The translations under genes and the position numbers were made by a program. A stretch of 36,538 nucleotides of DNA. Source: a virus. Taxonomy: Duplodnaviria; Heunggongvirae; Uroviricota; Caudoviricetes. The stretch covers positions 1 through 36,538 of the IMG/VR virus record IMGVR_UViG_2654587996_000001; one strand, 5' to 3'. Shown here piece by piece: positions 15,962 through 32,339 of this stretch. The notes beneath the pieces are model-generated. The model saw only the letters and a program-made list of their open reading frames with translations. It ran no database searches and was not told the origin of the DNA. The stretch's first letter is position 1. Each line of letters starts with the position of its first letter.

Positions 15962-16525
15962 TTATTCCTCTGACGGTCCGGCTTTTTCACCGGCGGCGGT
16001 TGCACCTGGCAGGCTGATGTGCGCCTCAAATGCCGGTGTGCCTTCCGGTTCGGTGAAGGTTTCGTAATGGCGCAGGAAATCATCCAGCGAGCTGATATCA
16101 GTCAGCGGTGCGATCATTTCCTCGCAGGCGAAATAAAGCGCATACATCACCGCGCCACTGTCGGCCTGCGTTTCGGTGTAACCGTTGACCGCCTTTTCAA
16201 AGTAAAGCGGTGAGGTGTTTTCTGTTCTGAAGCCGTTCAGTACGGCAATCAGACGGGCCACAATCTGATAAAGCCCCGGACGGCTGGCCTCACGCCCGTT
16301 GAGCATGTCGCCGATGACGTAGAACACCCAGTGACTGACCAGACGACCACGGGTCCGGCCTTCACCGGCACCCAGCCAGGCAACGTAGATCGCCGGGGCG
16401 TTAATCAGCATGGTGCGCAGCACACTGTCGCTCCAGTCGCCGGGATGCGTGTCCACCGACACCAGTTCGTTCCCGAAATACTCCCGGATGCGGGCGATGT
16501 ACGCCTGTTCGGTTTCCGTAATCAT
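15962..16525 (-). CDS. Head-tail joining/tail completion protein, Mu gp37 position
   Basis: 187 aa; synteny only. Confidence 0.45.
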   Translation of the reverse strand: MITETEQAYIARIREYFGNELVSVDTHPGDWSDSVLRTMLINAPAIYVAWLGAGEGRTRGRLVSHWVFYVIGDMLNGREASRPGLYQIVARLIAVLNGFRTENTSPLYFEKAVNGYTETQADSGAVMYALYFACEEMIAPLTDISSLDDFLRHYETFTEPEGTPAFEAHISLPGATAAGEKAGPSEE

Positions 16526-16941
16526 ATGAAGCCCTTCTGGTTGCGCCCGAATACCGCCGCATCAGACTGCACCTGCGGTAAATCCCCGGATTCAGGAGCC
16601 TCGCCGTCCGTATCCACGCCGACCGGCACGTTGCCGTTCATGACGTCTTTCAGCCAGGCCAGCGCCTCACGGTAACGGTCACGCGCCTGATCGGAGGCCC
16701 GCTGATCGCACAGGTAATAAAAGGCAATCGCGCAGCAGTGCTGAACAAGGACCGCCGGAACTACCGCCAGCGGCAGCGTGTAACGGGCAGACAGGTAACT
16801 GTCGATAAGGGCAGACGCATCCGTCAGCGCCCGGTTCAGCTTGCTTGTGTCCGGCTCATCCGAACGGGGCACGCTCAGTAATGACCTGAGAAAATCCTCG
16901 CGGTAACGCGCCCGCATATCGGTTTCGGTGGCGTAATTCAT
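16522..16941 (-). CDS. Head-tail connector protein, Mu gp36 position
   Basis: 139 aa; synteny only. Confidence 0.45.
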   Translation of the reverse strand: MNYATETDMRARYREDFLRSLLSVPRSDEPDTSKLNRALTDASALIDSYLSARYTLPLAVVPAVLVQHCCAIAFYYLCDQRASDQARDRYREALAWLKDVMNGNVPVGVDTDGEAPESGDLPQVQSDAAVFGRNQKGFI

Positions 16942-17387
16942 GCACGGACCTTTTTCGCCTGTTTCGCTTTGCTACCGGTATTTTTCCGGGGAGCATCCTG
17001 TCCGGCTTCGGCTTCGGCTTCGGCTTCGGCTTCGGCTTCGGCTTCGGCTTCGGCTTCGGCTTCGGCTTCGGCTTCGGCTTCGGCTTCGGCTTCGGCTTCG
17101 GCTCCGGCTAAATCTGCACCGGTCTCTGCATGAACCACACCCGCCACGGCTCCCGCATCATCACCAGGCGTCTGTAGTATTCGTACAGTGAGGCATGGCT
17201 CCGCTTCCAGTCGGGCAAGCTGCTCCGGGGTGACGTCAACCTGCTGGCGTCCCCGCATGAACAGGAACCCCGCACGACGAAACTGCGTACGACTGCAACG
17301 CACTTCTGCCAGTACCGTGACAGGATTGTCACCACTGACCCGAAGACCTGAATCATCTGTTGCTGCCACAGTGTGATGTTCATTCAT
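16938..17387 (-). CDS. Head protein carrying a (Glu-Ala)n repeat and a basic C-terminal tail
   Basis: 149 aa; the Glu-Ala run (one Gly-Ala plus 16 Glu-Ala pairs) is encoded by the hexanucleotide array at 17005-17106; lies between the major head gene and the connector-like gene. Confidence 0.55.
   Translation of the reverse strand: MNEHHTVAATDDSGLRVSGDNPVTVLAEVRCSRTQFRRAGFLFMRGRQQVDVTPEQLARLEAEPCLTVRILQTPGDDAGAVAGVVHAETGADLAGAEAEAEAEAEAEAEAEAEAEAEAEAEAEAEAEAGQDAPRKNTGSKAKQAKKVRA
17005..17106. repeat. Tandem hexanucleotide repeat (GCTTCG)16 plus one imperfect unit
   Basis: Read directly: 96 nt of perfect GCTTCG units at 17005-17100, then GCTCCG. Confidence 0.9.
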
Positions 17388-17430
17388 ATTTGCCCTCCGC
17401 AGGGGCCGGGCCGTAAGCCCGGCTCACCGT

Positions 17431-18378
17431 TTACAGATAATCCGCGACAACCAGTTCCAGCTTGCCTTTCATCTCGTTGGAGACGGTGGTGTTACCGTCC
17501 GCGAACAGCTCGCGCTCCAGCAGCTGCACCGCCTGTTTTTCCAGCGAGGTGGGGACAACAATATGGGTGGGTCTGATGCCGAGTTTGCGGCCACCGTCAG
17601 CCTTAAAGTCACGCATGGCTGACCAGCCGTGCCACAGCGCATCCAGCGTCAGCGGTGACTGCATCATGTAGGCCATCTGCCAGAAGCCGTAGCCCACATT
17701 GCGACGGGCGGAAGCACCGAACACAAACTCGTTATCAGTAAACGCACGGCCTTCATCGACTTTTGTCTGGGCAACCAGTTCGGCCTTGCGGCGATCCTGA
17801 TAAATCAGCGGTTTTACCGCGCGGGAGCAGTCAAGCAGATACCAGGCCGGGCCGCTGTAATCCGCCTGTGCACCGACAGAGCCGGTTTTTGCCACAAACA
17901 TGTTGCTGACCAGCTCCACATCACCGGTACCATCCACATTTGGGTAGACGGGGTGTTCGGTATCAAAGAAGTTCTGGCCGTCATAGCAGGCTGCATTGAT
18001 CCCGTCACGCAGTGCAGCAAAGACCAGTTCATCCGGTTGTGCCGCCGCAGCGCGTCCCATCTCCTGGAACAACGGGGAGTAGATGCCGAGATTGTCGTCT
18101 TCAAAGTCATCGCGGCTGATGGCAACGGTGCCTTCAAAGGTTTTGTTCACGATGGCGTAGCCATAGGCTTTCATCTTCTCGATGACGCGGGAGCCGATCC
18201 ACTCACGGAACTGCGGGAACTGCCCCAGCCAGCCGTAGGTGTTGGATTTCGACGTGGACGGCACGGTCATCGCAATTTTCTGGTACTGCGACGGGGCCAT
18301 GGACATCCCGGCCTGAAAATCAGAACGGTAGCCCGTCATCAGGGCGGTGATCATCGCCGGTGTAATCGGGGTAGGCAT
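17431..18378 (-). CDS. Major head (capsid) subunit, Mu T-like
   Basis: 315 aa, downstream of the protease/scaffold gene; a GC-rich hairpin at 17404-17422 follows its stop. Confidence 0.75.
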   Translation of the reverse strand: MPTPITPAMITALMTGYRSDFQAGMSMAPSQYQKIAMTVPSTSKSNTYGWLGQFPQFREWIGSRVIEKMKAYGYAIVNKTFEGTVAISRDDFEDDNLGIYSPLFQEMGRAAAAQPDELVFAALRDGINAACYDGQNFFDTEHPVYPNVDGTGDVELVSNMFVAKTGSVGAQADYSGPAWYLLDCSRAVKPLIYQDRRKAELVAQTKVDEGRAFTDNEFVFGASARRNVGYGFWQMAYMMQSPLTLDALWHGWSAMRDFKADGGRKLGIRPTHIVVPTSLEKQAVQLLERELFADGNTTVSNEMKGKLELVVADYL

Positions 18379-19511
18379 TATTGCATTTCCTCTTTCATTT
18401 TCAGGAACTCGGCTTCGGTTTTACCCAGCAGATGGGCGGCGGCGATATCTTCAGCCGACAGCACAGCGGTGGCGGTCTTTTTATCCGGCACGGTCACGGT
18501 GTCAGTCTGAAGGCCGGTCAGGGCCGCAACCGGCTGACGGGCGTCAAGCTGAGCTGAGAGAGCCGCCACGCCAATCTGCTGGCCGAGTCCTTCCATATAT
18601 CCACGTTCGCTTTTGAAGATGCGCCCTTCGGATTCGGCCTTGTCCAGCAGCTGCTCCAGCGTGGTGCTGCCATGCTGTGCCGACAGCGCGACATATTCGG
18701 TACGCAGGGCGTTATACGTCTCAACGGGCACATATTTCGTCAGATCGATAGTGCCGCCAGCCGGTGTGCCTTTTGCGGTTTCCAGCTCTGCCGACAGGCT
18801 GGCAACCTGCGTTTTCAGGGTGTCGTGCGCATCCGCACGGTTTTTGATCCCGGTAAGGGCAGACAGCGCCGCCGTGCCCAGTTCCGGTGTAAATTCGTCA
18901 CCGTCAGCCACGGTCAGACCGAGCGCCGTCAGCAACTGGCGTAATTGCTCATTCATGGGGGATTGCTCCTGAGAAGGGGAAACGACATAGAGATCGTCAG
19001 CACTGAGTGCCGCGACAGGGTTCATACCCGTAATACCCGGATCATTCGTCAGGGAAGCCATGCGCAAAAGGTAGGGTTCCCCGGTGTCAGCGAAATAATG
19101 CATATATGCAGACAGATAGGCATATTCACGGTCATCAATATGTTTTTGTGCCTGTGGCGTCCATTCAGGTTTAATGAAAATCCCCTGACCCTCACGCCAT
19201 TCGATGTTTTCCGGCTTAACCCATCCTGCGGCAATAGCCTTGAATCCGTTTTTCTTCGCATTCACGGAGTGGTGGTCATAATCAATCAGTAACGGCTGAT
19301 GCAGGGCGAAAAGCCCGGCTTTCATCCGGTTACAGGCGGATTCGTTAATCAGCCAGCCTTCAGCCGGTTTTTCCGGGCGACCGTCACGGGCCTTTACCCT
19401 GCCTGCTGGCAGTAACTGACACCATCCGTCGCCGGATGCAGTCAGCGAAGCTGAAAGCACGGCTAAACCGGAGGGGCGATTTGCGTCTTTTGGGGGATTT
19501 TCTGTCTTCAT
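18378..19511 (-). CDS. Head protease / scaffold protein, Mu I-like
   Basis: 377 aa, syntenic position upstream of the major head gene. Confidence 0.65.
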   Translation of the reverse strand: MKTENPPKDANRPSGLAVLSASLTASGDGWCQLLPAGRVKARDGRPEKPAEGWLINESACNRMKAGLFALHQPLLIDYDHHSVNAKKNGFKAIAAGWVKPENIEWREGQGIFIKPEWTPQAQKHIDDREYAYLSAYMHYFADTGEPYLLRMASLTNDPGITGMNPVAALSADDLYVVSPSQEQSPMNEQLRQLLTALGLTVADGDEFTPELGTAALSALTGIKNRADAHDTLKTQVASLSAELETAKGTPAGGTIDLTKYVPVETYNALRTEYVALSAQHGSTTLEQLLDKAESEGRIFKSERGYMEGLGQQIGVAALSAQLDARQPVAALTGLQTDTVTVPDKKTATAVLSAEDIAAAHLLGKTEAEFLKMKEEMQ

Positions 19512-20162: not shown

Positions 20163-20203
20163 ATTGCCTCCGCATAAAGGATGAATATAAAATAAACAGG
20201 CGG

Positions 20204-20283
20204 TCAGTGTACGCTTAACTGGTAAAGTCGGTGCCTGCCTCCGGGTGGATCATGTATGCGGGTTCGACCCCCGCCACTGACCG
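20204..20283 (+). other. tRNA-like element: canonical T-arm plus a 7-bp acceptor-like helix; no complete cloverleaf
   Basis: GCGGG-TTCGACC-CCCGC at 20259-20275 matches the tRNA T-stem and T-loop pattern; GTCAGTG (20204-20210) pairs with CACTGAC (20276-20282). D arm and anticodon arm could not be folded by hand. Confidence 0.3.
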
Positions 20284-21615: not shown

Positions 21616-23197
21616 CCAGCATCCCTTTCATTTCCGCAGCAAACATCGCATCACTGAGCAGCGTCATCAGGCGGGAATCATCCATTTCACGGTAAAGGGC
21701 GGGCAGATCTGCCAGCGCTTCCGCCAGCCCCCGCGTTCTGATGGCGTCAATGACCGGCTCCAGCACCGGGTCGATAGCCTCCTGTAACCGGCGGGCAGGC
21801 ACCGCATCGCCCATGTCGTCCAGCTCATCACGGGGGCTGCTTTTCGCTTCCGGCAGTCTGGCGGCCAGCGCCGTCTGTTCTGTCTTTTCCTGTTTTTCCT
21901 GCGGCGTTTCCCTGTCAGTCTGAGCCGGCTCATTTCCACTCTGACGGACACGGAAGATGGCTTCACCGGGCGTGAGCTGCGGAATACCGGTCTGCTCCCG
22001 TATCCAGGGATCAGAAATATCCATCCCTGTACTGAGCTGCATCACAGCACTGGTGATTTTGGTGATGTCACCCGGCTCTTTTGTCTGGAAACAGATACGC
22101 GGCAGGCGACGGATATCAATGGCGTGGGTGGTGTTCAGGGCGTACAGCGGATACACCAGATCGCGGTTCAGCGTGGCCGCCAGCTGGCGTAAATCAGAAT
22201 TTCTGATTTCCCGGCGCACCTCGTTATGCACCTCACCCAGCGAGCGCGCACCTTTGTCTCCGGCTTCCGTGGTCAGCGTGCCGCCGAGAATTGCTTTGGA
22301 GATGGAACGCTCTCCCCACGAAATCATGGTTTCAAACGGATCGGCCTGACCGTTCGCTGCCGCCTGAAACTCCAGCGACATCCCGGCCGGGATGATCCCG
22401 CCTGTACGTCGCCCGATATCCATTACCGCCCGCATCAGGGCGCTTTTCTGCTCCGGTGTTGCCCCGGACGGGTATTTCCCGACCTTCATCGGCAGGCCGT
22501 ACACCTCCAGAAATTCCGCCAGATCGCGCACGGAATAGTTTTTGAAAATGAACGGCCAGATAAGCGTCCTGACAAGCCCGGTTGCGCCGCCATAACCGGT
22601 CCGTGAACGAGACTGATGCACTATCCAGCCAAAGGGCTGAAACGCCACCCCGGCATGGCTGCCGTCACGCAGTCGCAGCTCGCTCAAATCATCCGGGTTA
22701 AGGCAGAAATGCCCGCTGTCACGCCATCGGATGGCGCGGATGATGTGCATCTTACCGAGCATCCCGTGCTCAATCTCCATGCAGGAATAGCCCTTCAGGA
22801 TGGCATCGGTGGCATCAAACAGCATGGCATCAAACCAGTCGGCGGAATGCAGATACTCGTCGAGCATTTCCGCGTCCTTCTTCTCATTCGCGCTGGCGTT
22901 CGGCGGCGGCTCAATGCTCCATGGCACGCCCTGAATGGCAAGGCGTCGCTTGCCCAGCTCCGCAAAAAGGTGGGTGTCCTTTTCTTCAATATCAGCCGCC
23001 AGATCGGACTGGGCAATCAGATCGCCACGTTCAGCCCCGCGAAGGCATTGTGCCGCCCGGTTCGGGGTGATACCCGAGGCCGGATGTTCAATATAACGGC
23101 TGGCAATCTGCGGAATATCCAGCGCGGCACTCTGCATCTCCGGGTCAAAGGAGAAAGGTTTTCCGTCAGTATCAATGATGCGTCCCACTACCAGCAC
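21599..23197 (-). CDS. Portal protein (Mu gp29/H-like)
   Basis: 532 aa downstream of the large terminase, overlapping start. Confidence 0.7.
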   Translation of the reverse strand: MLVVGRIIDTDGKPFSFDPEMQSAALDIPQIASRYIEHPASGITPNRAAQCLRGAERGDLIAQSDLAADIEEKDTHLFAELGKRRLAIQGVPWSIEPPPNASANEKKDAEMLDEYLHSADWFDAMLFDATDAILKGYSCMEIEHGMLGKMHIIRAIRWRDSGHFCLNPDDLSELRLRDGSHAGVAFQPFGWIVHQSRSRTGYGGATGLVRTLIWPFIFKNYSVRDLAEFLEVYGLPMKVGKYPSGATPEQKSALMRAVMDIGRRTGGIIPAGMSLEFQAAANGQADPFETMISWGERSISKAILGGTLTTEAGDKGARSLGEVHNEVRREIRNSDLRQLAATLNRDLVYPLYALNTTHAIDIRRLPRICFQTKEPGDITKITSAVMQLSTGMDISDPWIREQTGIPQLTPGEAIFRVRQSGNEPAQTDRETPQEKQEKTEQTALAARLPEAKSSPRDELDDMGDAVPARRLQEAIDPVLEPVIDAIRTRGLAEALADLPALYREMDDSRLMTLLSDAMFAAEMKGMLDDTGD

Positions 23198-27999: not shown

Positions 28000-28023
28000 A
28001 AATCCCGCGCTGTGGCGGGATTT
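28000..28023 (-). terminator. Rho-independent terminator at the end of the early operon
   Basis: Perfect 9-bp stem AAATCCCGC / GCGGGATTT with 6-nt loop, followed on the minus-strand RNA by UUAUUUUAAA; starts 4 nt after the gemA-like stop. Confidence 0.65.
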
Positions 28024-31808: not shown

Positions 31809-32339
31809 TTATTTATTCAGTCCGGCGTCCTGTTCAAAAGGCTCGACATAAAAACTTTCAGCGCCTTTATTCACCTTAATACCGGCAATGCCTTTCACTG
31901 CATCCGGCTCCGCCAGGACGGCTTCCTTGTTCACTTCCTCTTTCGTGCGGATGAATCGCTCAAGCCCCATACGGCGCAGCATTTCAATCACACCTTCCAC
32001 ATCACGGCTGACGCTGCATGATGGCGTTCCCAGCCGCCATGACACCGTTCCGGTGGTCAGATTGACTGTTTTGGTTTTGCCGCCGTTCGTCAGCTCATCA
32101 CGGTTGGTTTTGCACCAGTCCTGAATCCCTTTAAAAAGCACTTTGATTTGCTTTTTAAGATTTTCAATCTGCGGCGTATAACGGGCGGTGATTTCAGCCA
32201 CCTCGTCATTCATTGCCGTTTCCAGGCGCAGCGCCTCTCGCTGAATATCGCCCAGGGTGCGGATATCACGGCTGACTTCTTCGCGGGTCTGCGGTGCGGC
32301 CTCGGCTGCGGCCTTTAATTTTGTAACGCGTTTTGCCAT
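31809..32339 (-). CDS. gam: Gam-like host-nuclease inhibitor (Ku-like DNA end-binding protein)
   Basis: 176 aa; motifs such as TREEVSRDIRTLGDIQREALRLETAMNDEVAEI and NRDELTNGGKTKTVNLTTGTVSWR match the recalled Mu Gam pattern. Confidence 0.75.
   Translation of the reverse strand: MAKRVTKLKAAAEAAPQTREEVSRDIRTLGDIQREALRLETAMNDEVAEITARYTPQIENLKKQIKVLFKGIQDWCKTNRDELTNGGKTKTVNLTTGTVSWRLGTPSCSVSRDVEGVIEMLRRMGLERFIRTKEEVNKEAVLAEPDAVKGIAGIKVNKGAESFYVEPFEQDAGLNK

Follow-up and report, generated by a model that had tools for sequence, protein, structure and literature searches.

What does a stable RNA hairpin do when it lies directly behind the gene for a phage's major head protein? The question arises from the 36,538-nt stretch of DNA analysed here (the window), a Mu-like prophage with minus-strand structural genes, in which a GC-rich stem-loop separates the major head subunit gene, a member of the Mu gpT family, from a gp35/HI1506-like gene. 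A preliminary description of the locus proposed that the hairpin either stabilises the upstream mRNA or causes partial termination, raising capsid protein output relative to that of the downstream genes. The features of the junction are listed in the following table.

Table 1. Features at and around the junction of the major head gene and the gp35-like gene; coordinates are those of the window.
Feature	Coordinates	Strand	Basis or detail
Mu gene I-type protease/scaffold gene	18378..19511	-	ORF list; Pfam PF10123 Mu-like_Pro, E 5e-88
Major head subunit gene, Mu gpT family, 315 aa	17431..18378	-	ORF list; Pfam PF10124, E 2.5e-119
gpT stop codon UAA	17433-17431	-	
Intercistronic spacer gpT/gp35-like, 43 nt	17388..17430	-	
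Stem-loop	17405..17423	-	5' arm in mRNA 17417-17423; 3' arm 17405-17411; loop 17412-17416 (UUACG)
Predicted mini-hairpin CCCU/AGGG, 4 bp, loop GCGG	17393..17404	-	Centroid structures, 61-nt context and 36-nt window
gp35/HI1506-like gene, 149 aa, variable (AE)n repeat	16938..17387	-	Pfam FluMu_N, E 6.6e-9; BLASTP to Mu gp35, E 1e-10; PGAP name in relatives

The gpT gene of the window shares 69% DNA identity with the T gene of Mu, and 5276 homologues of gpT were found. One base is shared by the stop codon of the I-type gene and the start of gpT, which makes this pair of genes translationally coupled. Beyond the spacer, gp36- and gp37-like genes lie 3' of the gp35-like gene, and gp35, gp36 and gp37 overlap or abut one another. 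In the annotation of a 99% identical E. coli prophage the 43-nt spacer is the sole sizeable gap in the head-gene block and one of the few gaps of more than approximately 15 nt between the I-like and baseplate genes. The junction of T and gp35 is the only one in the head block without an overlapping stop and start. The gp35-like ORF itself contains a hexanucleotide tandem repeat at 17003-17109 (17.8 copies of CGGCTT on the plus strand) that encodes the (AE)n run, and the length of this CDS is 351, 354, 402 or 450 nt in E. coli prophages with the same spacer, which indicates that the repeat number varies among strains. PGAP places a feature named 'tRNA-OTHER' at 22895-22974 of the 99% identical E. 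coli prophage (L164; about 20190-20275 in the window), between the G-like and F-like genes, and ARAGORN found no tRNA or tmRNA anywhere in the window.

Inspection of the sequence bears out the core of the preliminary description. On the plus strand the 7-nt arms GCCGGGC and GCCCGGC, made up of G and C alone, pair perfectly around the loop CGTAA, the stem falls between the stop of the major head gene and the next gene, and no U-run follows it; only the coordinates given before, 17404-17422, needed correction, as they are off by one base. On the mRNA strand the hairpin is GCCGGGC-UUACG-GCCCGGC, and an optional eighth pair, U.G, would close a UAC triloop. From stop to start the transcript reads UAA-ACGGUGA-GCCGGGC-UUACG-GCCCGGC-CCCUGCGGAGGGCAAAU-AUG, the portion between the 3' arm and the start codon dividing into CCCUGC, GGAGGG and CAAAU. 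The stem thus begins 7 nt past the gpT stop. The core Shine-Dalgarno sequence (SD) of the gp35-like gene, GGAGG, occupies 17394-17398 within a G-rich run at 17393-17398 (GGAGGG), and the interval from the end of the stem to the core SD is given as 9 nt (17396-17404). The mini-hairpin, which is a weak prediction, abuts the main stem and takes in this SD. A scan for sigma-70 promoters identified none in the spacer.

Intrinsic terminators combine a G/C-rich stem-loop with a U-rich tract (approximately five or more U in 8 nt) just 3' of the stem. The hairpin of the window has the former, with 7 G:C pairs and a minimum free energy (MFE) of -16.3 kcal/mol (z = -3.2 relative to shuffled versions of the 23-mer), and lacks the latter, since the tail after the stem is CCCCUGCGG and the 8 nt 3' of the stem, CCCUGCGG, contain one U. 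A scan for stems followed by T-runs did not call it. E. coli RNA polymerase requires a U-tract close to a hairpin if the hairpin is to drive release of the transcript, and a hybrid rich in rC:dG pairs opposes release. With the stem followed by CCCC, release of the polymerase is therefore not expected.

The hairpin by itself is no rarer than chance in 36.5 kb. Perfect stems of at least 7 bp with loops of 3-8 nt number 19 in the whole window, against 12.9 +/- 3.2 in dinucleotide shuffles, and there is one all-GC 7-bp stem in the whole 36.5-kb window where 0.86 is expected. When 36-nt segments sliding along the sense strand were ranked by MFE, the hairpin came sixth, behind imperfect structures within GC-rich coding DNA; MFE is thus a poor discriminator in the window, and the energy of perfect stems was used instead for the comparison of junctions described below. 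What goes beyond chance is where the hairpin lies, in a spacer of 43 nt, how well it is conserved and how the relatives compare. A random all-GC hairpin would fall in the spacer with a probability of approximately 0.1% by our own estimate (0.86 x 43/36538).

Conservation of the spacer was assessed among close relatives of the prophage. In 15 relatives the spacer has 1 variable site in 43 nt, compared with 56 in the last 400 nt of gpT and 28 in the first 300 nt of the next gene; the flanking coding DNA of these relatives is up to 8% different, with 9-14% variable sites. Across approximately 230 E. coli prophages the 43-nt spacer is likewise near-invariant while the flanking coding DNA is 6-8% divergent: 203 of 228 E. 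coli copies of the spacer are 100% identical over 51 nt, and the 221 nt around it are mostly at 94% identity. Most of the spacer variants that were found keep the pairing. The closing C-G pair becomes U.G in seven copies (L092, L170 and five metagenome or IMG/VR copies, one of which, L197, is the same contig as L092), an A to G change in the loop occurs once, and a change of the loop from UUACG to UGACA, which converts the optional U.G into U-A, also occurs once. Two variants have a change outside the stem, and only one copy has a C.A mismatch. The invariance of the spacer is modest evidence (P of about 0.03-0.04, our Poisson estimate from the counts in the 15 relatives), and is partly due to the SD and to clonal sampling.

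The wider family provides a second line of evidence. From GTDB genomes and IMG/VR, 160 gpT loci were collected, which gave 126 non-redundant junctions, and for each of these the best perfect hairpin no more than 100 nt away from the gpT stop was ranked against windows from the same locus. Because automatic calls misplaced the start of the next gene in several loci (L008, L099, L021 and others), this test was made independent of start calls. The best perfect hairpin is in the top 5% at 60% of the 126 junctions, where 5% is expected, an enrichment of approximately 12-fold, and the median energy of the junction hairpin is -13.0 kcal/mol versus -5.8 kcal/mol. Spacers downstream of gpT are bimodal: one group, mostly from high-GC hosts, measures 15 nt or less and lacks a hairpin, and the other measures 33-100 nt and has one. 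Structure is conserved over sequence: the stems include GGCGG/CCGCC (Mu), GGCGGG/CCCGCC, GGGCG/CGCCC, CGGGG/CCCCG, CAGGG/CCCUG and GCCGGGC/GCCCGGC (window), and the loops are not conserved among relatives. When the Mu hairpin was scored on a MAFFT alignment of 25 enteric spacers, 80.6% of the cells were paired versus 56-61% with the structure slid by 1 column, and the covariation score was 0.275 versus about 0.09, values inflated by taking the structure from one of the aligned sequences and by the relatedness of the sequences; a gap in this alignment interrupts the row of the window itself. Compensatory GC<->CG swaps are found at two pairs in the same 25 spacers, in ratios of 15:10 and 12:9. 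The comparative data support the view that a hairpin at the T/gp35 junction is under selection at the RNA level and is linked to the major head gene.

Several loci depart from the general arrangement. In seven where the next gene begins within 15 nt of the gpT stop (L063, L064, L140, L142, L143, L150 and L155), a strong perfect hairpin of -12 to -25 kcal/mol (for example, GCUGCUGCAAAGCAGC) is present 35-40 nt past the gpT stop, inside the next ORF; spacer-less lineages often have such a hairpin, an arrangement reminiscent of the protective structures embedded in operons of E. coli (PMC5927463). Photorhabdus temperata (L014) retains the 3' arm only, having lost the 5' arm and with it the hairpin, and in an IMG/VR locus (L114) a duplication has produced a second full copy of the Mu-type hairpin along with a disrupted first one. 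The stop codon of gpT (about 17431) is a mosaic breakpoint in Yersinia phage Tongde (L002) and two IMG/VR contigs (L096 and L097), whose gpT is 91% identical to that of the window, yet is followed by a Mu-type 66-nt spacer and a Mu-type gp35; the hairpin travels with the downstream module. Mu-type spacers (Mu itself, L003, and L010, L011, L013-L024, L106 and L121) share the motif GTTTAAA in two places, where it extends the 3' arm with A/U and where it immediately precedes the SD. Photorhabdus khanii (L011) has CCCCGTTTAA as an exact direct repeat, and the 5' arm could pair with either copy. A switch based on alternative pairing of the 5' arm with the second GTTTAAA copy looked attractive in Photorhabdus spacers (L011) and was rejected, since in Mu-type spacers the second copy lacks complementarity and the window does not contain the motif.

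The tails of the family's hairpins bear on the choice between stabilisation and termination. Mu and other Muvirus genomes have a positional equivalent of the window hairpin, at the same junction, 7 nt from the stop and between the same flanking gene families. The Mu hairpin, AAAAGGCGG-UUCAGA-CCGCCUUUU, has an A-tract and a U-tract and lies in a 66-nt spacer; written with its tail (AAAAGGCGG-UUCAGA-CCGCCUUUUAA), it has the look of a weak terminator, and the simple scan for stems followed by T-runs did not call it either. The window hairpin is unrelated to it in sequence and differs in its 43-nt spacer, all-GC stem and lack of U. Family-wide, the 8-nt tails after the G:C core contain 3.35 U versus 1.76 expected from composition (p = 5e-11, n = 71). 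Among strong junction hairpins, 61 of 93 carry at least three U in the 8-nt tail and 11 of 93 carry at least five; most tails have 3-4 U and are typically UUUAAA or UUUUAA. Tails with no more than one U, the type of the window, are a minority, make up 10 of 71 and represent about six independent lineages, including Tolumonas L044, Pseudoalteromonas L055, L141 and L152/153; L034 is another independent recurrence of the U-less version. Since the U-less form recurs independently and is tightly conserved, whatever role it has retained should not need a U-tract. Partial termination fits the Mu-type relatives with their U-enriched tails and is disfavoured for the window copy, in which CCCCUGCGG follows the stem, whereas stabilisation of the upstream mRNA fits the U-less window copy, and the comparative data back a selected hairpin. 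The preliminary description is in this respect partly supported, with the stabiliser option favoured for the window copy over the termination option.

The reading we adopt, tentatively and at a little short of an even chance, is that the structure is an intercistronic protective stem-loop in a Mu-like late polycistronic transcript, placed where the I-T segment has its 3' end, and a predicted stabiliser that causes little or no termination. Without a U-tract behind the hairpin, RNA polymerase would be expected to read through into the gp35-like, gp36, gp37 and tail genes. [quoted passage not shown] The I-T segment, which is heavily translated, would then last longer than the distal portion of the mRNA and yield an excess of scaffold and capsid protein, as the analogy with malE-malF and other operons with differential decay suggests. 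The mini-helix over the SD of the next gene may add a secondary, weaker contribution. As the stem is only 7 nt past the stop, and within reach of the terminating ribosome, translation of gpT should transiently melt it.

The placement of the hairpin agrees with such a function, as it is a stable stem-loop directly 3' of a cistron needed in larger amounts within a polycistronic unit, the polycistronic status being deduced from the overlapping genes and the known late promoters of Mu. Dar and Sorek describe protective 3' structures that determine the stoichiometry of E. coli operons, the classic example being malE-malF, and find them to be conserved and frequently located within the next ORF (PMC5927463). 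The malE-malF REP stem-loops share with the window hairpin a stable, conserved stem-loop without a functional U-tract just 3' of the excess cistron of a polycistronic mRNA, but the window hairpin is single-copy, phage-specific and much shorter than a REP pair. Stable stem-loops without a U-rich sequence after them also mark and protect steady-state 3' ends in E. coli (Dar & Sorek 2018, PMC6061677). Stability, the missing U-rich sequence and the host are common to both cases; those stem-loops differ in that they mark Rho-terminated ends with rut sites downstream, whereas the window has a translated gene downstream and requires read-through for the tail genes. As to Rho loading, visual inspection shows no excess of C over G beyond the stem, where a translated gene lies. 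Against the protective reading, the sheath and tube genes downstream are also needed in high copy, and the benefit of lower distal mRNA is not self-evident. If the protective reading holds, which is the most likely case, the hairpin is an ordinary example of a familiar way of tuning an operon. The literature search returned no description of the T/gp35 junction hairpin in Mu or its relatives.

Of the other explanations, a leaky intrinsic terminator or a hairpin-dependent pause, in which some polymerases would stop or dwell past the stem and fewer transcripts would continue downstream, is possible but unlikely. Leaky terminators do follow major coat or capsid genes in other phages, as with T-phi after gene 10 of T7 and the terminator after gene VIII of f1. 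These likewise place a structured element right after the most-needed structural gene with read-through onward; unlike the window hairpin they are true terminators with U-tracts and measured efficiencies, and T7 uses its own polymerase. Weak terminators that allow read-through are a documented phage way to balance expression (PMC9163698), and the resemblance of relatives such as Mu to weak intrinsic terminators at this very junction, together with the family-wide U enrichment, suggests that the ancestral or general role may be weak termination, in which case the window copy could be a decayed terminator. The tail of the window copy and the silence of the terminator scan argue against this. In addition, the stem lies inside the footprint of the terminating ribosome, which would further hinder co-transcriptional folding. 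[quoted passage not shown] The literature search found no terminator or RNA 3' end described after Mu T, no Mu transcriptomics, and no transcript 3'-end, half-life or expression data for any Mu-like phage; for SfMu, six predicted terminators are given in a figure. That the hairpin has no present function, and is a chance palindrome, a terminator that has decayed and lost the U-tract, or a remnant of the joint at which recombination brought the head gene together with a different gp35 module, is unlikely in the light of the conservation and enrichment data. About one all-GC 7-bp hairpin per window is indeed expected, the junction is a mosaic breakpoint in three relatives, and at least one relative (L014) tolerates loss of the hairpin, but variation is much lower in the spacer than in the coding DNA on either side, nearly all of the spacer variants still pair, a random hairpin would rarely land in so short a spacer, and hairpins are enriched over the 126 junctions.

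Translational insulation, in which the hairpin and the CCCU/AGGG mini-helix would uncouple and damp translation of the gp35-like gene relative to the heavily translated capsid gene and the mRNA level would not be the main effect, is rather improbable. The centroid fold of the 61-nt context does pair the SD with the CCCU directly 3' of the main stem, the junction stands alone in the head block in lacking an overlap, and second, weaker structures at the SD or start are predicted in the spacers of Mu, L004, L099 and L044. The mini-helix has just 4 bp and about -5 kcal/mol, though, and the invariant spacer offers it no covariation; the second structures differ among relatives, folding programs pair something in any sequence, and the context z is only -1.6 to -3.2. 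Insulation would also leave the G/C-richness and conservation of the main stem unexplained. More improbable still is a role as the core of a translation-gated expression divider, conserved in position across Mu-like phages, that would set the head-to-tail ratio dynamically and not as a constant. The hairpin begins only 4-12 nt past the gpT stop, where the terminating ribosome would mask the 5' arm, and folding, with termination, pausing, 3' protection or closure of the SD helix as its consequence, would depend on the spacing of ribosome and polymerase on the capsid message. Least credible of all is that the hairpin is a REP/BIME-like host repeat, a described RNA family or a site recognised by a protein or RNase III. 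As a palindrome that is rich in GC, lacks a U-run and occurs in E. coli, the hairpin invites comparison with REP elements, but the spacer sequence has a single copy in the window, and 265 of 265 places where it occurs in 5426 E. coli genomes are between gpT and an HI1506-like gene, with a median of one per genome that has any. A dispersed REP/BIME palindrome was rejected given that no unrelated loci were among them. A search of Rfam at E <= 10 over 16000-19000 gave nothing at the spacer; its only two hits, both elsewhere and to snoRNAs, are at chance level (E 7.9 and 9.4). RNase III needs approximately 20 bp of double-stranded RNA, and a site of the T7 R-site type was rejected, the stem having 7-8 bp and the extended MFE structure adding scattered pairs only. 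The lack of loop conservation among relatives also counts against this group of explanations.

If the protective stem-loop reading is true, it would show how scaffold and capsid protein can be made in excess over the head-completion genes of the same transcript in a Mu-like phage with very few late promoters; the current view of phage gene regulation would be unchanged. The Mu-type spacer with a U-tract and the U-less type form a natural pair in one host that could separate termination from RNA-stabilising roles, and the U-less hairpin may also serve as a compact, portable insulator for synthetic operons. Elsewhere in the window are other perfect palindromes of 9-10 bp flanked by A-runs and T-runs, at 1583-1608, 28000-28023 and 32131-32158 (for example, AAACCGGCAG-GAGAAA-CTGCCGGTTT), and these look closer to canonical, possibly bidirectional, terminators than does the hairpin behind the major head gene.
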